Assembly (NCBI RefSeq): GCF_041248615.1
Contig: NZ_CP158426.1
Strand: one strand, 5' to 3'
Length of the DNA stretch: 64,000 bases
Source: Escherichia coli
Lineage (GTDB): Bacteria; Pseudomonadota; Gammaproteobacteria; Enterobacterales; Enterobacteriaceae
Below the pieces are notes generated by a model. It worked only from the letters and a program-made list of their open reading frames with translations. It was not told the origin of the DNA and did not search any database. Below, piece by piece: positions 3,671-44,402 of the stretch. A program made the translations under genes and the position numbers. Position 1 is the first letter of the stretch; every line of letters starts with the position of its first letter.

Positions 3671-4321
3671 ATGAATACACAACTGATGGGTGAGCGTATT
3701 CGCGCTCGCAGAAAAGAACTTAAGATTAGGCAGGCTGCCCTTGGCAAGATGGTTGGCGTGTCTAATGTTGCTATTTCCCAATGGGAGCGTTCTGAAACTG
3801 AGCCCAATGGCGAAAACCTATTGGCTTTAGCCAAGGCTTTACAGTGCTCCCCTGATTACTTGTTGAAAGGAGAAGATAGTCTTTCAAACATTGCCTATCA
3901 CAGCAGGCATGATCCAAGAGGTTCGTATCCTCTAATTAGTTGGGTAAGCGCAGGATGTTGGATGGAAGCTGTAGAGCCATATCATAAGCGTGCAATAGAT
4001 AACTGGTACGATACAACCGTAGATTGTTCAGAAGATTCGTTTTGGCTGGACGTAAAGGGTGATTCGATGACGGCTCCAGCCGGTCTTAGCATCCCGGAAG
4101 GGATGATAATACTAGTCGATCCTGAAGTAGAACCTCGTAATGGGAAGCTGGTAGTGGCAAAGCTCGAAGGAGAAAACGAGGCAACTTTCAAGAAGTTAGT
4201 TATTGATGCTGGCAGAAGGTTTCTAAAACCACTTAACCCACAATATCCGATGATTGAGATCAACGGGAACTGCAAAATCATCGGTGTAGTTGTCGATGCA
4301 AAAATAGCAAACCTTCCATAA
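3671..4321 (+). CDS. c2: Prophage repressor (P22 C2-like)
   Basis: 216 aa MNTQLMGERIRARRKELKIRQAALGKMVGVSNVAISQWE... with an N-terminal HTH and a C-terminal LexA-like self-cleavage domain; matches P22 C2 from memory. Confidence 0.9.
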   Translation: MNTQLMGERIRARRKELKIRQAALGKMVGVSNVAISQWERSETEPNGENLLALAKALQCSPDYLLKGEDSLSNIAYHSRHDPRGSYPLISWVSAGCWMEAVEPYHKRAIDNWYDTTVDCSEDSFWLDVKGDSMTAPAGLSIPEGMIILVDPEVEPRNGKLVVAKLEGENEATFKKLVIDAGRRFLKPLNPQYPMIEINGNCKIIGVVVDAKIANLP

Positions 4322-4633: not shown

Positions 4634-4933
4634 ATGGCAGTAGTCATTACATATCTGGCTGACGATAACGCCAGAAATCGCCGCAGAGCACGCAGACAGG
4701 CTCAACGTGAACAGGCAATGCAAGAACAGCGACTGGCGCGAAAGATTGCGCTAAAGCTCTCTGGTTGCGTCAGAGCAGATAAAGCAGCATCACTCGGAAG
4801 CCTTCGCTGCAAGAAGGCAGAAGAGGTCGAGAGTAAACGGAATCGTATTTACTACCGCAAGCCACGCAGTGAAATGGGTGTGACTTGTGTTGGTCGCCAG
4901 AAAATGAAATTAGGCAGTAAGCCACTTATTTGA
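4634..4933 (+). CDS. N: N-type transcription antiterminator (phage-21-like)
   Basis: 99 aa with an arginine-rich N-terminal motif (NARNRRRARRQAQREQ) and C-terminus GRQKMKLGSKPLI resembling lambda/phage 21 N. Located downstream of nutL. Confidence 0.75.
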   Translation: MAVVITYLADDNARNRRRARRQAQREQAMQEQRLARKIALKLSGCVRADKAASLGSLRCKKAEEVESKRNRIYYRKPRSEMGVTCVGRQKMKLGSKPLI

Positions 4934-4944
4934 GAGGAATTAAT

Positions 4945-5568
4945 ATGTCATCAATCCGCTTAACTACGAGAATGAAAGAGGAAATCGCTCGTAACGCTTT
5001 AATTAAGTCTGGGGTTTTCACTGAACTTGAAGAAGTAACAAAGTTAAAGAACCAGCTTGCACTTGACGCCAGAGTTATTGCGTTTGGCGGTAAAAAGAAA
5101 ACTGAGGAAGTGGATCAGTTATCATCCAAGTTGGTAGCTATAAGTGAAGAACTTGAAAAGATGGGATGTTCATTTTACTCATACGATGTTCGTTCTACTT
5201 CAATTTATCTGACTGTATCTGGCAGAAGGGTTGGATGGCTTTCATATGGGAAAGACGGCAACGGCGAAGATATATTGCTCCCTGCTCCGAACAAAGATAA
5301 ATGCATGTTTAGCGCAGAACACGAAATAACAAAAAGGTTTGATGAAATCTGCGCATTGCAACAAAAACTTGAAGCCAAGAAAAAGGATATCGAATCAAAT
5401 GTATGGGCTGCTTTGAACTCAGTCACAACAGTTAAGCGACTTATTGAAGTTTGGCCTGAAAGCAAAGAGTTGCTACCAAAAGAAGCAGATAAAGCAAGTA
5501 CAGCACTTCCTGCTTTACGGGTAGAAGATTTGAATAAGATGATTGGACTTCCTTCCGAGGCCGCATAG
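4945..5568 (+). CDS. Hypothetical protein (207 aa), no family recognised
   Basis: ORF track 4930..5568 trimmed to ATG 4945 preceded by gaggaa. Occupies the ral/sieB position between N and cIII. Confidence 0.5.
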   Translation: MSSIRLTTRMKEEIARNALIKSGVFTELEEVTKLKNQLALDARVIAFGGKKKTEEVDQLSSKLVAISEELEKMGCSFYSYDVRSTSIYLTVSGRRVGWLSYGKDGNGEDILLPAPNKDKCMFSAEHEITKRFDEICALQQKLEAKKKDIESNVWAALNSVTTVKRLIEVWPESKELLPKEADKASTALPALRVEDLNKMIGLPSEAA

Positions 5569-5605
5569 TCGGCCTTTATTTTTGGCATAAACAACAGAGG
5601 TGAAT

Positions 5606-5740
5606 ATGAACGCAGTTGAATTTGCAAAATGGATGGCAGAGCAAGATATCACAGGAGCCGACGAAAAGGCTGTGTACTACATGGCTCTGCTATGGATTCA
5701 CAAAGCAAAAGAGGCTGCAAATGCTCTTGGAGGTGAGTGA
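5606..5740 (+). CDS. Hypothetical small protein (44 aa)
   Basis: ATG at 5606 preceded by agagg; the stop overlaps the next start (TGATG). Not in the ORF track because it is under 60 aa. Confidence 0.3.
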   Translation: MNAVEFAKWMAEQDITGADEKAVYYMALLWIHKAKEAANALGGE

Positions 5741-5925
5741 TGTGCGAGTTTTATGAAGCAGATATCAAACGCCCAGAAATGGCAAGTGATGCGACATTAC
5801 GTGATTACTTCGCAGCAAAGTTCATGCAGGGAGTTTGTGCAAATCCAGACAGGCTTTATGACAACGAACCACTTGCTAAAGAAGCTTATGCGATGGCAGA
5901 CGCAATGCTCAAAGCTCGCGAATAA
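5740..5925 (+). CDS. Hypothetical small protein (61 aa)
   Basis: ORF track 5737..5925, with ATG at 5740 translationally coupled to the upstream small ORF. Confidence 0.4.
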   Translation: MCEFYEADIKRPEMASDATLRDYFAAKFMQGVCANPDRLYDNEPLAKEAYAMADAMLKARE

Positions 5926-6059
5926 GCACTGTGTATTCATTCCAACGAGTGAATACACGGAGCAATGTCGCTCGTAACTAAACAGGAGCCGACTTGTTCT
6001 GATTATTTGAAATCTTCTTTGCCCTCCGATGTGAGGGCAATTTTTTTGATGGAGGATAT

Positions 6060-7025
6060 ATGAGTGAAGTAACAGATTTAGTTGTTATTGAAAAAGCAAA
6101 TGCAATGACTGTATTTCAGTCTGCCGACCAGATTGAAGAAATCCTTCAAAAGGTTGAACGTGAAGTTATGTCCTTTGTGCCTGATATCACAACGGCAAAG
6201 GGCAGAAAGGAGATCGCTTCTCTGGCGTATAAAGTTGCGCAGACGAAAACATATCTCGATGGTCTTGGCAAAGACCTTGTTGCTGAACTGAAGGAAATTC
6301 CAAAGCTAATTGATGCCAACCGCAAGACAGTGCGTGATCGCCTTGATGAGCTGAAAGCCAAGGCACGCCAGCCTCTTACTGATTATGAGGAAGAACAGGC
6401 GCGGATTAAAGCCGAAGAGGAAGCTAAGGCAGCAGCTGAAGCCCTCGCAAAGCAAATTGAGTCTGACCATGAAATAGCGATTTTGATGGATCGCGAATTT
6501 GACCGCAAAAGAGAAGAGGCAAGACTCAAAGTGGAGCAGGAAAAGCGAGAGCATGAAGAACTCTTAAAAAGAGAAGCTGAAGAGAAAGCCAGAGCAGAAG
6601 CCGAAGCAAAGGCAAAAGCCGAAATTGAAGCAGCAGCAAGGCGAGAAGCAGAAGCTAAGGCAGCAGCGGAACGTGCAGAGCGTGAACGCATTGAAGCCGA
6701 GCAACGAGCACAGCGCGAAGCAAAAGAGGCAGCAGAACGAGCTGAAAGAGAAAAGCAGGCAGCAATTGAAGCAGAACGCCGAAAAGCACAGGAGGAGGCT
6801 GAACGAATCCGTCGCGATGCTGAAGCAAAAGAGCAAGCCAGAATAGCAGAAGAAAAAAGAATCAAGGAAGAAGAGCGTAGAGCAAAGGATAAAGCTCACC
6901 GGAAAGAAGTAAATAACAAAATACTTGCTGACCTTATCAAGGTTGGCGCATCAGAAGATGTTGCTAAAAATATCATAACAGCCATCGTAAAAGGCGAAGT
7001 ATTCGCAACAAAAATAACCTACTAA
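6060..7025 (+). CDS. Coiled-coil protein (321 aa) with a long Ala/Glu/Lys/Arg-rich low-complexity core
   Basis: ORF track. N-terminal approx 100 aa are of ordinary composition, followed by an approx 170 aa AEAKA/EAERR-type repeat and a short C-terminal domain. Antisense ORFs in the track here are repeat artefacts. Confidence 0.55.
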   Translation: MSEVTDLVVIEKANAMTVFQSADQIEEILQKVEREVMSFVPDITTAKGRKEIASLAYKVAQTKTYLDGLGKDLVAELKEIPKLIDANRKTVRDRLDELKAKARQPLTDYEEEQARIKAEEEAKAAAEALAKQIESDHEIAILMDREFDRKREEARLKVEQEKREHEELLKREAEEKARAEAEAKAKAEIEAAARREAEAKAAAERAERERIEAEQRAQREAKEAAERAEREKQAAIEAERRKAQEEAERIRRDAEAKEQARIAEEKRIKEEERRAKDKAHRKEVNNKILADLIKVGASEDVAKNIITAIVKGEVFATKITY

Positions 7026-7049
7026 TAAAACCAACATAAGGAACCACCC

Positions 7050-7196
7050 ATGATTTACGCAATCGCGGGAGGCGCTCGCATGGGTGCCTTCCAACTAAAT
7101 GAATCTTTACTTGAACGAATCACCCGTAAATTACGTGACGGATGGAAACGCCTTATCGACATACTTAATCAGCCAGGAGTCCCCAAAAATGGATAA
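7050..7196 (+). CDS. cIII: CIII-like FtsH inhibitor
   Basis: 48 aa MIYAIAGGARMGAFQLNESLLERITRKLRDGWKRLIDILNQPGVPKNG; the central ESLLERITRKLRDGWKRLIDILNQPGVPKNG matches lambda CIII as remembered. RBS aaggaacc. Not in the ORF track. Confidence 0.7.
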   Translation: MIYAIAGGARMGAFQLNESLLERITRKLRDGWKRLIDILNQPGVPKNG

Positions 7197-7302
7197 AACA
7201 CTTATGGCTATCCAGACTAAATTCACTATCGCCGCTTTTATTGGCGATGAAAAGATGTTTCGTGAGGCCGTCGAAGCCTACAGAAAATGGAGGTCAAAAT
7301 GA
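7189..7302 (+). CDS. kil: Kil-like host-killing / division inhibitor protein
   Basis: 37 aa MDKTLMAIQTKFTIAAFIGDEKMFREAVEAYRKW..., resembling lambda Kil from memory. Overlaps the cIII end. The longer track ORF 7099..7302 overlaps cIII in another frame. Confidence 0.6.
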   Translation: MDKTLMAIQTKFTIAAFIGDEKMFREAVEAYRKWRSK

Positions 7303-7487
7303 TTCCGGTAGAACTGGCGAAAACTCCAGAGTTAAGTCGATTAAAAAGAGAATATCACATTGCTGAGGCTCGTTACTGGCGTAAAGCGGGAGATAAATCA
7401 AAGAAACAACTTTGCTTATGGCAGGCACAAAGAGAGCGCATGAATGAGCGTGAGTTTCTTTCCTCCCCATCCGAATTACCATTCTGA
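7299..7487 (+). CDS. Hypothetical small protein (62 aa)
   Basis: ATG at 7299 overlaps the kil stop; ORF track 7287..7487. Confidence 0.4.
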   Translation: MIPVELAKTPELSRLKREYHIAEARYWRKAGDKSKKQLCLWQAQRERMNEREFLSSPSELPF

Positions 7488-7495
7488 GGCAAATT

Positions 7496-8176
7496 ATGGG
7501 AACTGCGACATTAATACTCGGTGAATCTGGCACCGGAAAATCAACCAGCATGAGAAATATCAATCCAGAGGAAGCAATACTTATAAAACCAATAGGCAAG
7601 CCGCTTCCATTTAAATCAAAAGACTGGCTGGCATGGGATGCCAGAGCAAAAAAAGGAACCGTAGTTACCACTGACAAATGGGACGTAATAGTTGCCGTAA
7701 TTAAGCGTGCTCACGAATACGGGAAAAGAATCGTTATTGTTGATGACTTCCAGTATGTGATGAGCAATGAGTTTATGCGCCGCTCAGAAGAAAAATCGTT
7801 TGATAAATTCACTGAGATAGGCCGCCACGCATGGGAGGTGATTAAGGCTGCACAGGATGCACCTGATGACCTGAGAGTCTATTTTCTTGCGCACACCGAA
7901 GAAACCCCTATGGGGCGTGTGAAAATGAAGACTATCGGCAAAATGCTGGACGAGAAAATCACTGTCGAAGGCATGTTTACTATAGTTCTTCGCACCCTTA
8001 CCCGCGATGACCAGTTCTTTTTCACCACGAAAAACAACGGTGCAGACACTGTTAAATCCCCAATGGGAATGTTTGATTCTAATGAGATTGATAACGATCT
8101 CTCTTTCGTCGATGCCACTGTTTGTGATTACTACGGCATCAATAATGTTCATCAAATTAAGGAAAACGCCGCATGA
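7496..8176 (+). CDS. Sak4-type RecA-fold ATPase (putative phage single-strand annealing / recombination protein)
   Basis: 226 aa with Walker A GESGTGKST near the N-terminus and a Walker B-like IVIVDDF. Its size and its pairing with an SSB-like gene fit the Sak4 family. Confidence 0.65.
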   Translation: MGTATLILGESGTGKSTSMRNINPEEAILIKPIGKPLPFKSKDWLAWDARAKKGTVVTTDKWDVIVAVIKRAHEYGKRIVIVDDFQYVMSNEFMRRSEEKSFDKFTEIGRHAWEVIKAAQDAPDDLRVYFLAHTEETPMGRVKMKTIGKMLDEKITVEGMFTIVLRTLTRDDQFFFTTKNNGADTVKSPMGMFDSNEIDNDLSFVDATVCDYYGINNVHQIKENAA

Positions 8177-8760
8177 GCAACGTGATTTTTACTTATAACG
8201 AAGAAGCAGCACTGACCGCAGGGCAAGGTGGTTTTATTAACGAAACTGGTGCTCATATCATTACCATTACTGAAGCAGAACTAAAGCAATCAGAAAAAGG
8301 AGCCAAATTTATTGAGTTTTCTGGCGAATCTGACGACGGACGTAAAATCCAATATCTTAGCGTCTGTGTTCAGAAAAATGACGGAACGGAAAACAAATTT
8401 GGCGCAAATGTCGTTCACGCCATGATGGGGTGTGCCGGGATTGGACAATTAACGCAACATATGGTTTCCGCCAGTAAATTTGTTGCTCCTGAGTTTCATG
8501 GAAAGAAAATCGGGTTAGTGCTCCAGAAAGTATTAACCACAAACAAAAAGACTGGCGCAGACAGCTACCAGATGGAAATACGCATCCCGTTTATTGCACA
8601 AACAGGTCAAACCCTTAAAGAAAAGGCGGAAGGCAAGCAACCAGAAACTATCGCCAACATGGTTGCCAGCCTCAAAGATAAAGACAATCGCTCTAAAAAC
8701 GTAAGCCAGAATCATGCAGATGATTATGGTTACAGCCAGAACGATTACCCTCCATTCTAG
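8173..8760 (+). CDS. Phage SSB-like protein (DUF2815-type partner of Sak4)
   Basis: 195 aa; start overlaps the Sak4 stop. C-terminal acidic/aromatic tail ...DDYGYSQNDYPPF resembles the SSB C-terminal tail. Confidence 0.5.
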   Translation: MSNVIFTYNEEAALTAGQGGFINETGAHIITITEAELKQSEKGAKFIEFSGESDDGRKIQYLSVCVQKNDGTENKFGANVVHAMMGCAGIGQLTQHMVSASKFVAPEFHGKKIGLVLQKVLTTNKKTGADSYQMEIRIPFIAQTGQTLKEKAEGKQPETIANMVASLKDKDNRSKNVSQNHADDYGYSQNDYPPF

Positions 8761-8785
8761 ATTATTGCAAAATAAGGATTCCATT

Positions 8786-9082
8786 ATGCCAGCGCCTCTG
8801 TATGGTGCGGATGACCCGCGCAATTGCTCCGGTAGCTCCAAGGCGGAGGTGCTGGAAAATATCAAAAACAATTTCGACGCGTTTCTTGCTCTGACACCAG
8901 AAACAAAAGCAGAACGGATGTACCGACGCGATATACAACTCGCGCTAAAACAGGAGAAGGACCGAACAAACGAAACAGCAATGAGACCGTTGCGAAAAGC
9001 GACAATAGACAAATTCCCTGAATATATCGACCCGCGCCTGCGTAATTACCGCTCACGCTATGGCGCTATCAGTAATGACTGA
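8786..9082 (+). CDS. Hypothetical protein (98 aa)
   Basis: ORF track 8714..9082 trimmed to ATG 8786 with RBS aaggatt. Confidence 0.45.
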
Positions 9083-11518: not shown

Positions 11519-11544
11519 TTGCGTGTAATTGCGGAGACTTTGCG

Positions 11545-11763
11545 ATGTACTTGACACTTCAGGAGTGGAATGCACGCCAGCGACGCCCAAGAAGCCTTGA
11601 AACAGTTCGTCGATGGGTGCGCGAATGCAGGATATTCCCTCCTCCGGTTAAGGATGGAAGAGAATATCTGTTCCACGAATCAGCGGTAAAGGTTGACTTA
11701 AATCGACCAGTAACAGGTAGCCTTTTGAAGAGGATCAGAAATGGGAAGAAGGCGAAGTCATGA
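11545..11763 (+). CDS. xis: Excisionase Xis
   Basis: 72 aa MYLTLQEWNARQRRPRSLETVRRWVRECRIFPPPVKDGREYLFHESAVKVDL...; matches lambda Xis from memory. Overlaps the int start. Confidence 0.9.
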   Translation: MYLTLQEWNARQRRPRSLETVRRWVRECRIFPPPVKDGREYLFHESAVKVDLNRPVTGSLLKRIRNGKKAKS

Positions 11764-12811
11764 GCGCCGGGATTTACCCCCTAACCTTTATATAAGAAAC
11801 AATGGATATTACTGCTACAGGGACCCAAGGACGGGTAAAGAGTTTGGATTAGGCAGAGACAGGCGAATCGCAATCACTGAAGCCATACAGGCCAACATTG
11901 AGTTATTTTCAGGACACAAACACAAGCCTCTGACAGCGAGAATCAACAGTGATAATTCCGTTACGCTACATTCATGGCTTGATCGCTACGAAAAAATCCT
12001 GGCCAGCAGAGGAATCAAGCAGAAGACACTCATAAATTACATGAGCAAAATTAAAGCAATAAGGAGGGGGCTGCCTGATGCTCCACTTGAAGACATCACC
12101 ACAAAAGAAATTGCGGCAATGCTCAATGGATACATAGACGAGGGCAAGGCGGCGTCAGCCAAGTTAATCAGATCAACACTGAGCGATGCATTCCGAGAGG
12201 CAATAGCTGAAGGCCATATAACAACAAACCCTGTCGCTGCCACTCGCGCAGCAAAATCAGAGGTAAGGAGATCAAGACTTACGGCTGACGAATACCTGAA
12301 AATTTATCAAGCAGCAGAATCATCACCATGTTGGCTCAGACTTGCAATGGAACTGGCTGTTGTTACCGGGCAACGAGTTGGTGATTTATGCGAAATGAAG
12401 TGGTCTGATATCGTAGATGGATATCTTTATGTCGAGCAAAGCAAAACAGGCGTAAAAATTGCCATCCCAACAACATTGCATGTTGATGCTCTCGGGATAT
12501 CAATGAAGGAAACACTTGATAAATGCAAAGAGATTCTTGGCGGAGAAACCATAATTGCATCTACTCGTCGTGAACCGCTTTCATCCGGCACAGTATCAAG
12601 GTATTTTATGCGCGCACGAAAAGCATCAGGTCTTTCCTTCGAAGGGGATCCGCCTACCTTTCACGAGTTGCGCAGTTTGTCTGCAAGACTCTATGAGAAG
12701 CAGATAAGCGATAAGTTTGCTCAACATCTTCTCGGGCATAAGTCGGACACCATGGCATCACAGTATCGTGATGACAGAGGCAGGGAGTGGGACAAAATTG
12801 AAATCAAATAA
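11741..12811 (+). CDS. int: Tyrosine integrase Int (lambda-type)
   Basis: 356 aa MGRRRSHERRDLPPNLYIRNNGYYCYRDPRTGKEFGLGRD...; essentially lambda Int from memory. The adjacent P' arm and core follow. Confidence 0.95.
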   Translation: MGRRRSHERRDLPPNLYIRNNGYYCYRDPRTGKEFGLGRDRRIAITEAIQANIELFSGHKHKPLTARINSDNSVTLHSWLDRYEKILASRGIKQKTLINYMSKIKAIRRGLPDAPLEDITTKEIAAMLNGYIDEGKAASAKLIRSTLSDAFREAIAEGHITTNPVAATRAAKSEVRRSRLTADEYLKIYQAAESSPCWLRLAMELAVVTGQRVGDLCEMKWSDIVDGYLYVEQSKTGVKIAIPTTLHVDALGISMKETLDKCKEILGGETIIASTRREPLSSGTVSRYFMRARKASGLSFEGDPPTFHELRSLSARLYEKQISDKFAQHLLGHKSDTMASQYRDDRGREWDKIEIK

Positions 12812-12884
12812 TGATTTTATTTTGACTGATAGTGACCTGTTCGTTGCAACAAATTGATAAGCAATGCTTTTTTATAATGCCAAC

Positions 12885-12899
12885 TTAGTATAAAAAAGC
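12885..12899. other. att-lambda common core (attL junction: host B arm - core - phage P' arm)
   Basis: The + strand carries ttagtataaaaaagc, the reverse complement of the lambda core GCTTTTTTATACTAA. It is flanked on the phage side by the lambda P' arm (gttggcattataaaaaagcattgcttatcaatttgttgcaacgaacaggtcactatcagtcaaaataaaatcatta on the reverse strand) and on the host side by caggcttca, as in E. coli attB. Confidence 0.85.
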
Positions 12900-12945
12900 A
12901 GGCTTCAACGGATTCATTTTTCTATTTCATAGCCCGGAGCAACCT

Positions 12946-14229
12946 GTGAACACATTTTCAGTTTCCCGTCTGGCGCTGGCATTGGCTTTTGGCGTGACGC
13001 TGACCGCCTGTAGCTCAACACCGCCCGATCAACGTCCTTCTGATCAAACCGCGCCTGGTACCTCTTCTCGCCCGATTCTGTCGGCAAAAGAAGCGCAGAA
13101 TTTCGATGCTCAACACTATTTTGCATCCCTGACACCAGGTGCGGCAGCGTGGAATCCTTCCCCGATTACCCTGCCTGCACAACCTGACTTTGTTGTCGGC
13201 CCGGCGGGTACTCAAGGTGTAACGCATACCACGATTCAGGCGGCGGTAGATGCGGCAATTATCAAGCGTACCAACAAGCGCCAGTATATTGCCGTGATGC
13301 CTGGTGAGTATCAGGGAACGGTGTATGTCCCTGCCGCTCCGGGTGGAATTACTCTGTACGGTACAGGTGAAAAACCGATTGATGTGAAGATTGGGCTTTC
13401 CCTTGATGGGGGCATGAGCCCCGCCGACTGGCGTCACGACGTCAACCCGCGCGGCAAATATATGCCAGGTAAACCAGCGTGGTATATGTACGATAGCTGC
13501 CAGAGCAAACGCAGCGACAGTATCGGCGTTCTCTGCTCTGCGGTCTTCTGGTCACAAAACAATGGCCTGCAACTGCAAAACCTGACCATCGAAAACACGC
13601 TGGGCGATAGCGTAGATGCGGGTAACCATCCGGCGGTGGCACTGCGTACTGATGGCGACAAAGTGCAGATCAATAACGTCAACATTCTCGGTCGTCAGAA
13701 TACCTTCTTTGTCACCAACAGTGGTGTGCAAAACCGTCTGGAAACCAACCGTCAGCCGCGTACTCTGGTGACCAACAGTTACATTGAAGGGGATGTGGAT
13801 ATCGTTTCTGGTCGCGGCGCAGTGGTGTTCGATAACACCGAATTCCGCGTGGTGAACTCCCGTACCCAGCAAGAAGCGTATGTGTTTGCACCGGCTACGC
13901 TGTCCAACATTTACTACGGTTTCCTCGCCGTAAACAGCCGTTTCAATGCTTCCGGTGATGGCGTGGCGCAACTGGGCCGCTCGCTGGATGTTGATGCCAA
14001 TACCAACGGTCAGGTGGTGATCCGTGATAGTGCCATCAACGAAGGTTTTAACACAGCCAAACCGTGGGCTGATGCGGTGATCTCTAATCGTCCGTTTGCG
14101 GGTAACACCGGCAGCGTTGATGATAACGACGAAGTACAGCGCAATCTGAATGACACTAACTACAACCGCATGTGGGAATACAATAACCGCGGCGTGGGTA
14201 GCAAAGTGGTTGCAGAGGCGAAGAAGTAA
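12946..14229 (+). CDS. ybhC: Putative pectinesterase-family lipoprotein YbhC
   Basis: 427 aa, GTG start, lipoprotein signal (LTACSS). Gene adjacent to att-lambda in K-12 order. Confidence 0.85.
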   Translation: MNTFSVSRLALALAFGVTLTACSSTPPDQRPSDQTAPGTSSRPILSAKEAQNFDAQHYFASLTPGAAAWNPSPITLPAQPDFVVGPAGTQGVTHTTIQAAVDAAIIKRTNKRQYIAVMPGEYQGTVYVPAAPGGITLYGTGEKPIDVKIGLSLDGGMSPADWRHDVNPRGKYMPGKPAWYMYDSCQSKRSDSIGVLCSAVFWSQNNGLQLQNLTIENTLGDSVDAGNHPAVALRTDGDKVQINNVNILGRQNTFFVTNSGVQNRLETNRQPRTLVTNSYIEGDVDIVSGRGAVVFDNTEFRVVNSRTQQEAYVFAPATLSNIYYGFLAVNSRFNASGDGVAQLGRSLDVDANTNGQVVIRDSAINEGFNTAKPWADAVISNRPFAGNTGSVDDNDEVQRNLNDTNYNRMWEYNNRGVGSKVVAEAKK

Positions 14230-34099: not shown

Positions 34100-35152
34100 T
34101 TACCCGCGACGCGCTTTTACTGCATTCGCCAGTTGACGTAACAGAGCATCGGTATCATCCCAGCCAATGCAGGCATCGGTGATGCTCTTGCCATAGGCCA
34201 GCGGTTCCCCACTCTCGAGGCTCTGATTGCCTTCCACCAGATGGCTTTCCACCATCACGCCAATAATGGCCTTTTCGCCACCGGCAATCTGCTGGCAAAC
34301 GTCAGTACAAACATCCATCTGCTTTTTGAATTGTTTGGACGAATTAGCATGGCTGAAATCGATCATCACCTGTGCTGGCAGGCCTGCTTTGTTCAGCCCT
34401 TCTTTCACTTCAGCAACGTGCTTCGCGCTGTAGTTAGGCTCTTTACCGCCGCGCAGAATGATATGGCAATCGCCGTTACCGCTGGTATTCACAATCGCCG
34501 AATGCCCCCATTTCGTTACGGACAGGAAGCAGTGCGGCGCACCGGCGGCATTAATGGCATCGATAGCCACTTTAATCGTACCATCAGTGCCATTTTTGAA
34601 GCCTACCGGGCAAGAAAGACCAGACGCCAGTTCGCGGTGCACCTGCGATTCCGTGGTACGTGCGCCAATTGCGCCCCAGCTCATCAGGTCAGCGAGATAC
34701 TGCGGGGTGATCATATCGAGAAATTCACCCGCCGCTGGCAGACCGCTATCGTTAATATCGAGCAGCAATTTACGGGCGATTCGCAAACCGTCGTTGATCT
34801 GGAAGCTGTTATCCATATGTGGATCGTTAATCAGCCCTTTCCAGCCCACCGTGGTGCGCGGCTTTTCAAAATAGACGCGCATCACGATTTCCAGCTCATC
34901 TTGCAGCTCTTCACGCAGCGCCAGCAAGCGAGTGGCATACTCTTTAGCAGCGACAGGATCATGAATTGAGCACGGACCAATCACAACCAACAGGCGATCA
35001 TCATTACCTTTCAGGATCTTATGGATCGCTTTTCGGGCATGGGCGACCGTATTCGCGGCATTTTCAGTAGCGGGGAATTTTTCCAGCAATGCGACAGGAG
35101 GAAGTAACTCTTTGATTTCTTTGATGCGTAAATCGTCGTTCTGATAATTCAT
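34100..35152 (-). CDS. aroG: DAHP synthase, Phe-sensitive
   Basis: 350 aa MNYQNDDLRIKEIKELLPPVALLEKFPATENAANTVAHARKAIHKILKGNDDRLLVVIGPCSIHDP; matches AroG from memory. Confidence 0.95.
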   Translation of the reverse strand: MNYQNDDLRIKEIKELLPPVALLEKFPATENAANTVAHARKAIHKILKGNDDRLLVVIGPCSIHDPVAAKEYATRLLALREELQDELEIVMRVYFEKPRTTVGWKGLINDPHMDNSFQINDGLRIARKLLLDINDSGLPAAGEFLDMITPQYLADLMSWGAIGARTTESQVHRELASGLSCPVGFKNGTDGTIKVAIDAINAAGAPHCFLSVTKWGHSAIVNTSGNGDCHIILRGGKEPNYSAKHVAEVKEGLNKAGLPAQVMIDFSHANSSKQFKKQMDVCTDVCQQIAGGEKAIIGVMVESHLVEGNQSLESGEPLAYGKSITDACIGWDDTDALLRQLANAVKARRG

Positions 35153-35467
35153 GTCTGTTCCAGTGTTGCCATACTTATCTTAGTGAATGCAATACTTCCA
35201 ATCTATATCTTCCGTCAGAATGTGTAAACGGGGTTTTACACTATGAACGGATTAATCCTGGAATTAGCAAGAAAAACGCCAGATTGTCGCGAAAAACGAG
35301 ATCTCTCCTACAATTTCTAACTGTAACTCCTTTGTTTGTTAATTATTTCAAGATTCTCTGCTGGGTATCTTTGCCTGGCTGAAATCTTAAACCATTGCCT
35401 TATATTCACCTGCAAATGCACTGTTGGAAGAGGTTATCCGACATAACGACCATAACAGGAGCATCCT

Positions 35468-35848
35468 ATGAAAATGACAAAACTGGCCACACTATTTTTG
35501 ACTGCCACTCTAAGCCTTGCCAGCGGTGCCGCACTGGCTGCCGATAGCGGAGCGCAAAGCAATAACGGCCAGGCAAACGCCGCAGCTGATGCGGGCCAGG
35601 TAGCCCCTGATGCCCGTGAAAATGTCGCGCCAAATAACGTCGACAATAACGGGGTAAATACCGGTTCTGGCGGCACAATGCTGCATCCGGATGGTTCTTC
35701 AATGAACAATGACGGCATGACCAAAGATGAAGAGCACAAGAACACCATGTGCAAAGATGGTCGCTGTCCGGATATCAATAAAAAGGTACAAACTGGTGAT
35801 GGCATCAACAATGATGTCGATACCAAAACCGACGGTACCACGCAGTAA
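35468..35848 (+). CDS. ybgS: Periplasmic protein YbgS
   Basis: 126 aa with signal peptide and low-complexity N/G/D-rich sequence; K-12 order. Confidence 0.8.
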
Positions 35849-35961
35849 CCCTGCGAAATAGCCAATAATGGGAGAGCGGAGTCTCTCCCTTTTAATTTTT
35901 CCCTTCTAAAAGCAGTATGATGTCATAAAGTTAAGTGAGAATAATTAAGGGATGACTCGTC

Positions 35962-36903
35962 ATGGCGCACTCACACTCACACACTTCCTCACACCTGCCA
36001 GAAGATAATAATGCTCGTCGCTTGTTGTATGCTTTCGGCGTGACTGCCGGGTTTATGCTCGTAGAAGTCATTGGTGGTTTTCTTTCCGGTTCTCTGGCAT
36101 TGCTGGCCGATGCGGGTCATATGTTGACCGATACTGCCGCCCTGCTTTTCGCCCTACTCGCAGTGCAATTTTCCCGTCGTCCTCCCACCATTCGCCACAC
36201 TTTCGGTTGGCTAAGATTGACCACGCTCGCGGCGTTTGTGAATGCCATCGCCCTGGTGGTGATTACTATTTTGATTGTCTGGGAGGCGATAGAACGCTTC
36301 CGCACTCCGCGTCCGGTCGAGGGCGGCATGATGATGGCAATTGCCGTGGCTGGGCTGCTGGCAAATATACTTTCTTTCTGGTTACTTCATCACGGCAGCG
36401 AAGAGAAAAACCTCAACGTGCGAGCAGCGGCACTGCATGTGCTCGGGGACCTGCTGGGTTCGGTTGGGGCTATTATTGCCGCGTTGATTATTATCTGGAC
36501 CGGCTGGACACCTGCTGACCCCATTCTCTCAATACTGGTGTCGCTTCTGGTTCTGCGTAGCGCGTGGCGACTGTTGAAAGATAGCGTGAATGAATTACTT
36601 GAAGGTGCACCGGTATCGCTGGATATCGCCGAACTGAAGCGTCGTATGTGCCGGGAAATCCCGGAAGTCCGCAATGTGCACCATGTACATGTATGGATGG
36701 TAGGCGAGAAGCCGGTGATGACGCTGCATGTGCAGGTGATCCCGCCACACGATCACGATGCCTTGTTAGATCAGATCCAACACTACCTGATGGATCACTA
36801 TCAGATTGAGCACGCCACTATTCAGATGGAATATCAACCTTGTCATGGGCCAGACTGCCACCTGAATGAAGGGGTGTCTGGCCATTCACATCATCACCAT
36901 TAA
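35962..36903 (+). CDS. zitB: Zinc efflux transporter ZitB (cation diffusion facilitator)
   Basis: 313 aa; His-rich N-terminus and C-terminus (GHSHHHH). Confidence 0.9.
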
Positions 36904-38939: not shown

Positions 38940-39308
38940 GATAGCAAAAAAGCGCCTTTAGGGCGCTTTTTTACATTGGTGGGTCGTGCAGGATGACTCG
39001 CTTCGCTCGCCCTTCGGGCCGTCGCCGCGAGCGGCTCCGTTGTTTCGCTGCGCTCAACTCAAACCTGCTGCAGGTTCGAATCTTTGAGTATCGCAGATAG
39101 CAAAAAAGCGCCTTTAGGGCGCTTTTTTACATTGGTGGGTCGTGCAGGATGACTCGCTTCGCTCGCCCTTCGGGCCGTCGCCGCGAGCGGCTCCGTTGTT
39201 TCGCTGCGCTCAACTCGAACCTGCTGCAGGTTCGAATCTTTGAGTATCGCAGATAGCAAAAAAGCGCCTTTAGGGCGCTTTTTTACATTGGTGGGTCGTG
39301 CAGGATTC
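38940..39308. repeat. Tandem repeat, 156 bp unit x ~2.4, downstream of the tRNA operon; each unit has a terminator hairpin and a 17 nt tRNA-Lys 3' fragment
   Basis: Units at 38940-39095 and 39096-39251, with a partial third copy merging into the 3' end of the last tRNA-Lys. Each unit holds aaaaaagcgcctttagggcgctttttt plus tggtgggtcgtgcagga plus tgactcgcttcgctcgcccttcgggccg... Confidence 0.8.
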
Positions 39309-39364
39309 GAACCTGCGACCAATTGATTAAAAGTCAACTGCTCTACCAACTGAGCTAACGACCC
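39289..39364 (-). tRNA. lysQ: tRNA-Lys (anticodon UUU)
   Basis: 76 nt; reverse complement matches E. coli tRNA-Lys (GGGTCGTTAGCTCAGTTGGTAGAGCAGTTGACTTTTAATCAATTGGTCGCAGGTTCGAATCCTGCACGACCCACCA). Name assigned by K-12 operon order. Confidence 0.9.
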
Positions 39365-39397
39365 CTTGCGGGATTATGCTGCTTTAATCATTCAGGA

Positions 39398-39473
39398 TGG
39401 TGGGTCGTGCAGGATTCGAACCTGCGACCAATTGATTAAAAGTCAACTGCTCTACCAACTGAGCTAACGACCC
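39398..39473 (-). tRNA. lysZ: tRNA-Lys (UUU)
   Basis: Same 76 nt tRNA-Lys sequence; name by K-12 operon order. Confidence 0.9.
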
Positions 39474-39619
39474 ATACGGGTGTTACCTGAAAGATTTCTA
39501 CTCGGAACCAATCTTTAAAATTGGTGGGTCGTGCAGGATGACTCGCTTCGCTCGCCCTTCGGGCCGTTGCTGGCGCAACGTTATCCTTCACGCTTAACAT
39601 CTGAGTTTGATGTTAAAAT

Positions 39620-39695
39620 TGGTGGGTCGTGCAGGATTCGAACCTGCGACCAATTGATTAAAAGTCAACTGCTCTACCAACTGAGCTAACGACCC
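39620..39695 (-). tRNA. lysY: tRNA-Lys (UUU)
   Basis: Same 76 nt tRNA-Lys sequence; name by K-12 operon order. Confidence 0.9.
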
Positions 39696-39698
39696 GAG

Positions 39699-39774
39699 TG
39701 GTGGGTGATGACGGGATCGAACCGCCGACCCCCTCCTTGTAAGGGAGGTGCTCTCCCAGCTGAGCTAATCACCC
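39699..39774 (-). tRNA. valZ: tRNA-Val (anticodon UAC)
   Basis: 76 nt; reverse complement matches E. coli tRNA-Val(UAC) (GGGTGATTAGCTCAGCTGGGAGAGCACCTCCCTTACAAGGAGGGGGTCGGCGGTTCGATCCCGTCATCACCCACCA). Confidence 0.9.
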
Positions 39775-39825
39775 GATACTGCGCTGGATACTACAAACTA
39801 CTTCCACCGAACCCACCGTAATTAG

Positions 39826-39901
39826 TGGTGGGTCGTGCAGGATTCGAACCTGCGACCAATTGATTAAAAGTCAACTGCTCTACCAACTGAGCTAACGACC
39901 C
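39826..39901 (-). tRNA. lysW: tRNA-Lys (UUU)
   Basis: Same 76 nt tRNA-Lys sequence. Confidence 0.9.
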
Positions 39902-39903
39902 GG

Positions 39904-39979
39904 TGGTGGGTGATGACGGGATCGAACCGCCGACCCCCTCCTTGTAAGGGAGGTGCTCTCCCAGCTGAGCTAATCACCC
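39904..39979 (-). tRNA. valT: tRNA-Val (UAC)
   Basis: Same 76 nt tRNA-Val sequence. Confidence 0.9.
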
Positions 39980-40114
39980 GATACTACGCTGGATACTACA
40001 ACTAACTATGTTAGTGGTGGGTCGTGCAGGATGACTCGACTTCGTCTCGCCCTTCGGGCCGTTGCTGACGCAACGTTATCCTTCACGTTTTACTACCGCT
40101 TCCACCTTAGCGAT

Positions 40115-40190
40115 TGGTGGGTCGTGCAGGATTCGAACCTGCGACCAATTGATTAAAAGTCAACTGCTCTACCAACTGAGCTAACGACCC
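40115..40190 (-). tRNA. lysT: tRNA-Lys (UUU), first gene of the operon
   Basis: Same 76 nt tRNA-Lys sequence; the promoter is expected upstream at higher coordinates. Confidence 0.9.
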
Positions 40191-43136: not shown

Positions 43137-44402
43137 TTACGGTTTGAAGTCCAATGGCGCGTTTTTGAACACTTCATATACTGCCTGGCTTGGTGGTTTC
43201 GGGATCTTCGCAAGTTTAGCTGCTGCCAACGCAGCCTGACAAAGTGCGGGATCGCCACCTTCAGGTTTGATATCCAGTAACATACCATCGGGTGCCAGTT
43301 TTATGCGCAGCGTACAGGTTTTGCCTGCATAGGACGATGCGTCATAGAACTTACTTTCGATAGCAGATTTAATCTGCCCGGCATAGTTATTGATATCGGC
43401 CCCTGATGCGCCATTGTTTTTAGTATTACCACTCCCGGCTGGCGAAGCATTGTTCCCTTTCGCCCCTCCCCCCGTTTTCGGTGCATTCTTACCAGAGCTT
43501 AGCTCACCGAAAATATCATCTGCCTCTGCGGCAGCTTTTGCTGCAGCGGCTTTTTCAGCTGCTGCTTTTGCAGCTGCCGCTTTTTTGTCTGCGGCGGCTT
43601 TTTCTGCCGCTGCTTTCTTATCAGCTGCTGCCTTTTCAGCAGCCGCTTTTTCTGCTGCTTTTTTGTCGGCTGCAGCTTTCTCTGCTGCCGCTTTCTTATC
43701 AGCTGCAGCCTTTTCAGCAGCCGCTTTCTTCTCAGCTTCTGCTTTGGCTTTTTCAGCAGCTTCAGTTGCCGCTTTCTTTCTTGCTTCAGCTGCAGCTGCT
43801 TCTGCCGCTTCCGCTTTCTTCTTCAGTGCCGCCGCGGCTGCCTCGACTTTTTTCTGCGCTTCGGCTGCGGCTTTGGCGGCTTCTGCTTCTGCTTTTTTCT
43901 TCGCGTCTGCAGCCGCTTTCTTCGCAGCTTCTTCCGCAGCTTTAGCATCCGCTTCGGCCTTCGCTTTAGCATCTGCCGCCGCTTTCGCTGCCGCTTCTTC
44001 CGCTTGCTTCTGCTTTAACTCGGCCTGTTTTGCGGCTTCTTCAGCCTGCTTTTTCTGTTCCTGAGCAGCTAACCGCTCTTTCTCAAGTTGCTTCAGGCGT
44101 TCCTGTTCAGCCGCTTGTTTCTCACGCAGTTCTTCAGCAGCCTGCTGTTCCTTCATCTTGCGCTGCTCATCAGAACGCTTCGCGCTTGATTCCTGGCTTT
44201 GCATGCGTTTGTACTGCTCAACTACCGCACCTGAATCAACCATGACAGCGTCGATGGATGAACCACCGCCGCCTCCGGCTGAAGCTTCTATATTCTCATC
44301 GAACGAACTCCAGATCAGCGCCGCAAATAAGATGACATGCAGCACTGCTGAAATAATTATCGCCCGCTTGAGCTTGTCGTTTTGTTCGGTTGCCTTTGAC
44401 AC
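43137..44402 (-). CDS. tolA: Tol-Pal system protein TolA
   Basis: 421 aa; N-terminal TM segment, long Ala/Lys/Glu-rich helical domain II encoded by imperfect DNA repeats, C-terminal domain III. Confidence 0.95.
   Translation of the reverse strand: MSKATEQNDKLKRAIIISAVLHVILFAALIWSSFDENIEASAGGGGGSSIDAVMVDSGAVVEQYKRMQSQESSAKRSDEQRKMKEQQAAEELREKQAAEQERLKQLEKERLAAQEQKKQAEEAAKQAELKQKQAEEAAAKAAADAKAKAEADAKAAEEAAKKAAADAKKKAEAEAAKAAAEAQKKVEAAAAALKKKAEAAEAAAAEARKKAATEAAEKAKAEAEKKAAAEKAAADKKAAAEKAAADKKAAEKAAAEKAAADKKAAAEKAAADKKAAAAKAAAEKAAAAKAAAEADDIFGELSSGKNAPKTGGGAKGNNASPAGSGNTKNNGASGADINNYAGQIKSAIESKFYDASSYAGKTCTLRIKLAPDGMLLDIKPEGGDPALCQAALAAAKLAKIPKPPSQAVYEVFKNAPLDFKP

Follow-up and report, generated by a model that had tools for sequence, protein, structure and literature searches.

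The 64,000-nt stretch of Escherichia coli DNA analysed here (assembly GCF_041248615.1, contig NZ_CP158426.1; the whole stretch is referred to as the window) was found to contain, at 6060..7025 on the plus strand, an ATG-started open reading frame (ORF) of 321 amino acids (aa), and direct translation returned the same reading frame and protein sequence that had been quoted in an earlier note on this DNA. The ATG was preceded by a Shine-Dalgarno sequence, GGAGG, read from the sequence at 6051..6055 (+), 5 nt ahead of the start codon. The gene is a known, ordinary and very common member of the phage family that contains phi80 Agt (Mog), Sf6 gp33 and D3 Orf53 (phrog_1376), referred to here as the Agt/Sf6-gp33 family. 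Judged from sequence, its members are accessory components of the recombination (Rec) modules of phages, and the association was found to be strong and taxonomically broad.

The DNA of the gene was found to be 97-99% identical to genes in at least 35 phage records, including IME10 Orf53, HK544, mEp213, CUS-3 and Sf6 gene 33, and the gene was present in 529 of the 5426 complete E. coli genomes (about 10%). The protein matched phrog_1376 over its full length (residues 1-321, E=6.5e-108), which is annotated in PHROGs as of unknown function, and the 322-aa Agt protein of phage phi80 (YP_007947961.1) was 50% identical over the full length (E=6e-62). The alignment of the non-repeat domains to phage families, which the earlier note had proposed, was carried out and placed both ends in PHROG 1376/phi80 Agt/Sf6 gp33. 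Gene 33 of Sf6 was found to share 97.4% DNA identity with the window gene, the terminator tL2A upstream and cIII-kil downstream as in the window, but it is paired with Erf-SSB-Abc2 whereas the window contains Sak4. Orf53 of D3 was about 55% identical in the N-terminal domain and directly precedes Erf-YqaJ, and the length of the linker between the two ends was found to vary among relatives.

Close relatives saturated the initial homologue search. When residues 1-121 were searched exhaustively, 4984 clusters (50% identity) were retrieved at E<=1e-3, of which 3503 reached E<=1e-10, and the domain was found at the N-terminus in nearly all of the clusters found, in proteins of about 250-430 aa. No Pfam family was found to cover the protein or 68 relatives, the isolated N- and C-terminal domains and four distant members likewise gave nothing consistent, and the NCBIfam and PADLOC scans returned sub-threshold noise only, the helical region giving LmuB at E=0.005, for example. 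PHROGs 17211 (N-terminal part) and 21365 (C-terminal part) also matched the protein. In CUS-3 (35058-36027), and likewise in several further phage records, the gene was found as two coding sequences (CDS) of 116 aa and 214 aa owing to a 1-nt length difference in the low-complexity region, and these two PHROGs together with BFVD entry A5VWA2 are probably fragments of a frameshift-split gene, not independent families. The '(x2)' annotations of some phage records had also been considered as antisense ORFs, which was ruled out because the two CDS of CUS-3 lie on the same strand and are split by the frameshift. Several members were found to carry wrong GenBank names ('integrase', 'putative tail-fiber protein', 'ribosome recycling factor', 'antitoxin protein' and 'TolA'), and the misnamed examples included Aeromonas phiARM81mr p15, Iodobacter PLPE gp77 and Plectonema phage Lbo240-yong2.

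The protein was found to consist of three parts. The conserved N-terminal helical domain (aa 1-121; 6060..6422, +) contained two short helices, a 'VPDITT' loop and the start of a long helix, and residues T45, R49, K63, G70, K78, D85, R88, P105 and E110 were invariant in 69 relatives. It was followed by an Ala/Glu/Arg/Lys helix of variable length (aa ~122-279; 6423..6896, +), which serves as a spacer, and by a conserved C-terminal domain of about 40 aa (aa ~280-321; 6897..7022, +), predicted with local distance difference test scores (pLDDT) of 95-97. The C-terminal domain contained the motif HRKx(V/I)N...G...A...I.KG.(I/V)...I.Y and was the least diverse of the three parts in nucleotide sequence. 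The central ~165-175 aa were of low complexity and rich in Ala, Glu, Lys and Arg, as the earlier note had described. The comparison of repeat length between relatives, suggested there as a check, was run and showed conserved ends and a middle that changes by in-frame blocks (245-333 aa); such block indels were found even among relatives of >90% identity, and total lengths of 245, 275, 290, 300, 309, 321 and 333 aa were seen. In the family as a whole the middle section had a median length of 187 aa (range 43-235) and contained 49% charged residues, 21% Ala and 1% Pro+Gly.

The suggested structure prediction was also run, with AlphaFold2 (AF2) and a 69-sequence alignment, and the model (mean pLDDT 86.5, with a dip at residues 140-180) contained two short helices and a loop, followed by an unbroken helix from residue 46 to 294 and, at the C-terminus, a small unit of helix and strand. 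The core was 57-59% charged and contained 0.33-0.36 opposite-charge i/i+4 pairs per residue with a charge period of about 8 residues; in residues 170-280 the charged fraction was 59%, with 0.36 i/i+4 pairs per residue and 5% LIVMFWY. No hydrophobic period of 3.5 residues was found in the core, and in residues 155-280 the best-register hydrophobic occupancy of the a/d positions was 0.12-0.25 as against 0.88 in the GCN4 control. Thus the long helix of the 'coiled-coil' label was retained, but the coiled coil itself is doubtful for residues 155-280. The only matches of the family profile to the PDB were zuotin (E=7e-4) and residues 855-1048 of myosin VI (E=2e-3), and the Foldseek search with the AF2 model returned nothing below E=1 in the PDB and the protein's own family only in BFVD. 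The high charged fraction, the dense i/i+4 charge pairs, the charge period of about 8 residues and the lack of a hydrophobic seam are shared with the ER/K single α-helices (SAH) of the myosin VI medial tail and zuotin, but the phage helix is richer in Ala and the match is an analogy of composition, not homology. The core therefore resembles an ER/K single α-helix and, to judge by its sequence, would be monomeric; the straight helix of the AF2 model is compatible with either an SAH or a coiled-coil monomer.

The members from Shewanella phage 1/41 (L096:3378-4499) and Vibrio phage D273 (L095:3465-4763) were found to retain the N- and C-terminal domains, whereas the charged helix was partly replaced by non-repetitive, apparently globular segments of about 80-200 aa, and the D273 member was found to carry a PVQE repeat. 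These globular segments could be more informative about function than the E. coli protein.

In 13 of 15 contexts from phages of α-, β- and γ-proteobacteria, the gene was found in or beside a module of single-strand annealing protein (SSAP) and exonuclease genes (Erf, RecT, Redβ or Sak4). With the family gene denoted X, the order was agt-gamL-recT-exo in phi80, X-GamL-Bet-Exo in Klebsiella phage Mulock, Orf53-Erf-YqaJ in Pseudomonas phage D3, X-Erf-YqaJ-NinB in Sinorhizobium phage phiLM21 and X-ExoVIII-Bet in Shewanella phage 1/41. The order was RecE-Bet-X-RdgC in Iodobacter phage PLPE, ExoVIII-RecT-X in Aeromonas phage ARM81mr, Erf-X in Vibrio phage D273, Erf-Exo-hyp-X in Vibrio phage phiV208 and Erf-YqaJ...SSB-X in a metagenomic contig (L090), and Edwardsiella phage GF-2 and Sf6 were found to contain X-cIII...Erf-SSB. 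The scan of IMG/VR gave near-identical loci only, so that it informs on mosaic linkage and not on diversity; loci were counted if they contained a gene copy of at least 96% identity and at least 3.5 kb of downstream sequence (n=71). An SSAP was found 473-687 bp downstream of the gene in all 71 loci, and the SSAPs matched were two Erf variants, RecT, Sak4 and Redβ, that is, five references from four unrelated families. An Abc2 or MuGam-type protein was present in 70 of the 71. The upstream neighbours were mosaic in the E. coli loci (Nmad5, ral, gp34 and others), and the linkage to cIII was tight.

Positions 1-27,027 of the window were found to be 99.85% identical to, and colinear with, E. coli NRZ14408, which identifies the region as a lambdoid prophage beside ybhC, at attλ. 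The excisionase and the integrase (about 11739-12809) close the prophage end (region ~11543-14227), and ybhC (12944-14227) adjoins the prophage at attλ. Along the plus strand, here the leftward pL operon, a CI-type repressor (3671-4321, +) was followed by a 99-aa ORF at 4634-4933 (+), which occupies the position of the N antiterminator, is named hypothetical by the Prokaryotic Genome Annotation Pipeline (PGAP) in the matching genome, and carries the arginine-rich N-terminal motif NARNRRRARRQAQRE. The next gene, at 4930-5568 (+), was Nmad5 ('nucleotide modification associated domain 5'; Pfam E=1.7e-71); it was present in only part of the near-identical loci and is thus a mosaic insertion in the pL operon. 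Between Nmad5 and the 321-aa gene two small ORFs were found, followed by the presence of an intrinsic terminator at 6019..6049 (+). The terminator scan gave it an 8-bp stem (6019-6040, 5 GC pairs) and then a T-run, and it is the counterpart of the tL2A annotated in Sf6, at the equal position relative to gene 33.

Downstream of the gene, cIII (FtsH inhibitor; 7050..7196, +), which was the constant downstream neighbour in the tblastn survey and was located from the PGAP annotation of the 99.85%-identical genome, was followed by kil (host division inhibitor peptide; 7189..7302, +) and a small hypothetical gene (7299..7487, +), both from PGAP mapping. The last of these would correspond to the hkaM position of HK620 by positional comparison (PMC5928155). 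The SSAP of the prophage, a Sak4-like ssDNA-annealing ATPase, was found at 7496..8176 (+; phrog_2872 E=3.9e-108; Pfam AAA_24), followed by a distant HK620-type phage SSB at 8173..8760 (+; phrog_743 E=1.8e-66). The SSB ends in a C-terminal 'NDYPPF', as described in PMC5928155. The anti-RecBCD protein Abc2 was found at 8784..9080 (+; PF11043 E=3e-35; phrog_656), its start being taken from PGAP.

No sigma-70-like promoter was found by the promoter scan in 5500-7600, and because of the terminator directly upstream the 321-aa gene would be transcribed solely by N-antiterminated pL. The gene is predicted to be co-transcribed with cIII, kil, Sak4, SSB and Abc2 in the pL operon, and its protein is predicted to be a soluble, cytoplasmic, delayed-early pL-operon product of the lambdoid prophage. 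The claim that the repeat gives rise to spurious antisense ORFs was borne out: long stop-free ORFs were found in the gene at 6383..6865 (-, 160 aa, the longest) and 6564..6899 (-, 111 aa), with further antisense ORFs at 6306..6554 (-, 82 aa) and 6146..6361 (-, 71 aa) and an alternative-frame ORF at 6625..6846 (+, 73 aa). All of these are by-products of the codon composition. Among 67 distinct near-identical alleles, 32, 47 and 83 variable sites were found at codon positions 1, 2 and 3 of the plus frame, and from this third-position excess the plus frame is the coding one. In the N-terminal third the corresponding numbers were 9, 12 and 36, which suggests that the N-terminal domain is under purifying selection.

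The earlier note had also compared the repeat with domain II of host TolA, whose gene was placed at 43137..44402; the gene was found there, on the minus strand. The statement that the two repeats have the same composition and periodicity did not hold. The phage core contained 27% E, 25% A, 15% R and 11% K, whereas TolA domain II contained 41% A, 20% K, 16% E and 3% R; the self-similarity lags were 8/22/14 (z<=3.6) in the phage core versus 37/16/26/11 (z~6) in TolA, and the charge periodicity was about 7.9 residues versus 5.3/7.2. The likeness that was found is that both are long, Ala-rich charged helices nearly without large hydrophobic residues at a/d. The repeat DNA was hardly tandem, Tandem Repeats Finder reporting a 6-nt period (63% match) and a 15-nt unit of 1.9 copies. 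DNA matches between the gene and tolA were of 10-17 nt only, by which the horizontal transfer of a tolA fragment was ruled out.

BLASTP without composition correction aligned the protein with the window TolA at 30% identity over 217 aa (E=2e-23), whereas with correction a single 23-residue match at E=0.59 was left, and nothing was aligned outside the low-complexity region. The uncorrected score of the core against TolA was 84.3 bits, and 30 shuffled cores reached 70.8±5.4 bits with a maximum of 85.9. The TolA likeness is not above chance, because composition correction removes it and shuffled cores nearly equal it. The TolA models NF007065 and TIGR02794 did not match the phage protein at E<=1, whereas the window TolA, as positive control, scored E=3e-166 and E=2.5e-91, respectively. 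No transmembrane anchor or signal sequence was found, the maximum Kyte-Doolittle mean over 19 residues being 1.03 (residue 292) as compared with 2.45 at residue 14 for the TolA anchor, and no counterpart of domain III was found, the C-terminal 49 aa having no Pfam match at E<=10. The anchor, domain III and the model match that TolA possesses are thus all three lacking in the phage protein. The resemblance to TolA is therefore purely compositional, and an envelope function is predicted to be absent. Of the readings put forward earlier, that of a convergent low-complexity helix was supported by the loss of the likeness on composition correction, whereas that of a Tol-pathway mimic was contradicted by the missing anchor, signal sequence, model match and domain III; the link to the envelope was given up, since the end domains belong to a phage recombination-module family and the repeat is a variable spacer, the result that the earlier note had named as its refutation. 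The usual RefSeq/PGAP name for the gene was found to be 'cell envelope biogenesis protein TolA' (on many of the E. coli records listed), which for the prophage gene is a composition artefact, and since PGAP already uses that name the TolA analogy restates an artefact of annotation. The closeness of the prophage to tolA comes from the position of attλ, about 30 kb from the tol operon, and not from a functional link. In the interval between the prophage and the tol operon seven tRNA genes were found at 39289-40190 (-), five of tRNA-Lys UUU and two of tRNA-Val UAC, which are ordinary host content.

A relation to DUF1351 had likewise been proposed. In Firmicutes phages DUF1351, Sipho_Gp157, Mu-Gam-like and DUF2483 proteins alternate upstream of erf-ssb or sak4-ssb, and this alternation was taken by the authors to imply analogous function (PMC8093625). 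In Oenococcus phage phi9805, gp48 was found to be a DUF1351 protein (PF07083 E=3e-34, positive control) followed by Sak4 and SSB, and the window gene was likewise followed by Sak4-SSB after ~0.47 kb of small genes. Both proteins are of about 300 aa and in the AF2 models contained an N-terminal short helix, an 8-residue D/T-containing loop and a long helix, which starts at residue 46 in the window protein and at residue 50 in DUF1351 (model pLDDT 81.7). The C-terminal half of DUF1351 is globular, helical and β-containing, whereas the window protein contains the low-complexity charged helix. PF07083 did not match the protein; nor did it match 68 relatives (E<=0.01) or, at E<=1-10, distant members and the N- and C-terminal domains taken singly (~75 members scanned overall). 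The hhalign comparison of 4- and 21-sequence profiles with DUF1351, for which the DUF1351 homologue searches were shallow, gave a probability of <=3.6%, with P=0.012 for the N-terminal domain and P=0.24 for the reversed control. In reciprocal Foldseek searches of BFVD each model recovered its own family only, with no cross-matches between DUF1351 and Agt. A co-linear motif was observed, 'AHRKxVNN' in the window protein (aa 275-290) and 'AHQKxVND' in phi9805 gp48 (aa 243-258), at P~0.02; the shared AH(R/Q)KxxN sits just ahead of the C-terminal module and is not significant alone. Membership in DUF1351 was not established by hidden Markov model, hhalign or reciprocal fold search. Of the proposed 'DUF1351-type recombination partner', the Rec-module linkage and the slot were thus retained and the family assignment was not. 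The Agt/gp33 family is a positional and probably also a functional analogue of DUF1351, not a member.

With regard to function, the phi80 record NC_021190.1 was found to annotate agt as 'anti-toxin for Gam; Mog (modifier of Gam)' and the adjacent gamL as 'toxic without Mog', and it is on account of this annotation that a role in tempering RecBCD manipulation is proposed. It is accepted that GamL inhibits RecBCD, by an unsettled mechanism (PMC12315714). The phi80 Agt protein shares with the window protein the three-part architecture and a pL-operon position shortly ahead of the recombination genes, but gamL lies next to agt, whereas the window gene is followed by cIII-kil-small ORF-Sak4-SSB-Abc2. 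The best explanation, held with moderate confidence, is that the gene encodes an Agt/Sf6-gp33 accessory protein that would temper the phage manipulation of RecBCD. The most likely role would be to temper or direct the phage handling of RecBCD, so that recombination could run without premature killing of the cell. The two end domains would act as binding modules separated by a stiff ER/K-type helix, which over residues 122-285 would span about 25 nm. As essentially one allele is found with four non-homologous SSAP types, the partner is likelier to be a conserved host factor or the anti-nuclease arm than an SSAP; the candidate anti-nuclease arm would be RecBCD together with a phage modifier, namely Abc2 in the window and GamL in phi80. 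The transfer of function from phi80 to Abc2/RecBCD in this prophage is by analogy, and we infer it.

Several observations weigh against this explanation. A tblastn search with phi80 GamL, which covered the initial 20 kb of the window and 80 near-identical loci, gave no match; Abc2 or MuGam was found in place of GamL, and since the window prophage is without gamL the phi80 function cannot apply literally. The GenBank annotation is the only source of the phi80 'antitoxin' claim, and no further functional data on Agt, GamL or the 321-aa gene were found in the literature. The P22-like prophages of E. coli contain cIII, kil and small ORFs between the gene and the SSAP, and part of the Rec linkage could mirror lambdoid operon order. 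Two metagenomic contexts (L087 and L088) contained no recognisable Rec genes, and the gene is not among the module components listed by a survey of 325 lambdoid Rec modules published in 2025 (PMC12315714).

Four rival explanations were weighed. That the protein inhibits host nucleases or protects DNA ends by itself, as a functional analogue of λ Gam or Mu Gam in the 'Gam slot' of exo-bet-gam-type modules and not as a modifier of another inhibitor, would fit D3, phiLM21, PLPE, ARM81mr, D273 and Shewanella 1/41, where the gene adjoins the SSAP/exonuclease pair and no other anti-nuclease gene is annotated nearby, and would fit the equivalent slot of Firmicutes phages, in which the alternating proteins include Mu-Gam-like ones. 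Such an inhibitor would however be redundant where Abc2/MuGam (the 70 of 71 E. coli loci) or GamL (phi80 and Mulock) co-occurs, and neither the sequence nor the fold searches showed a likeness to Gam or Mu Gam, so that this explanation was considered unlikely. The linkage to Rec genes could also be a consequence of fixed early-operon order, the gene being an unrelated 'moron', for example for anti-defence or superinfection exclusion. The tight E. coli linkage to cIII and not to a particular SSAP, the mosaic upstream neighbours, the 'unknown function' class in PHROGs and the two contexts without Rec genes agree with this, but adjacency to an SSAP or exonuclease persists across α-, β- and γ-proteobacterial phages, with the gene before or after the SSAP, and operon inertia alone does not predict such linkage across varied gene orders; the 'moron' is accordingly regarded as quite improbable.

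Quite improbable to a like degree is a true but very distant homology to DUF1351 (PF07083), in which the globular middle would have been replaced by the charged helix. It is favoured by the equal slot, by the similar helix-loop-long-helix topology of the N-terminus and by two weak co-linear profile matches, the N-terminal domain and 'AH(R/Q)KxxN' (P=0.021), but PF07083 matched 0 of the ~75 members even at E<=10, the hhalign probability stayed at <=3.6%, the reciprocal BFVD searches gave no cross-match, and the conserved motifs could be aligned only with register shifts of 7-17 residues. A mimic of TolA, or an effector of the Tol pathway acting in the envelope, is what the RefSeq name suggests, and this would account for the uncorrected BLASTP match and for the TolA name given by PGAP and in several phage records. 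The match is however nearly equalled by shuffled cores and lost on correction, the core is Arg/Glu-rich and not Ala/Lys-rich, the features of TolA outside the helix are missing, and the proximity to tolA is explained by the position of attλ, which leaves this reading refuted at the level of sequence and extremely improbable.

An accessory protein that tempers RecBCD manipulation thus remains the preferred explanation. In a wider and tentative form, which is more doubtful than probable, the Agt/gp33 family would be an unrecognised, near-universal extra component of the Rec modules of proteobacterial phages and a 'molecular ruler' that bridges a conserved host factor, most plausibly RecBCD or another end-processing nuclease, and the recombination or anti-nuclease proteins of the phage. 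In such a ruler the ER/K helix would keep the N- and C-terminal domains tens of nanometres apart, the length polymorphism of the helix would tune the bridging, and the family would be the functional counterpart of DUF1351/Gp157 of Firmicutes phages.

For the window itself the finding carries little weight, as a near-identical gene is found in at least 35 phages and in about 10% of complete E. coli genomes. The main outputs are the correction of a widespread mis-annotation, in which the TolA name could mislead studies of the envelope or of colicins, and the documentation of a consistent linkage to Rec modules. At 50% identity the family breaks down into about 5000 clusters; no Pfam model exists for it, and current accounts of lambdoid Rec modules leave it out. 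Should the phi80 'modifier of Gam' function prove general, the family would supply a hitherto missing regulator of the handling of RecBCD by temperate phages, which, if true, would be of consequence for recombineering toolkits and for defence systems that detect RecBCD inhibition.

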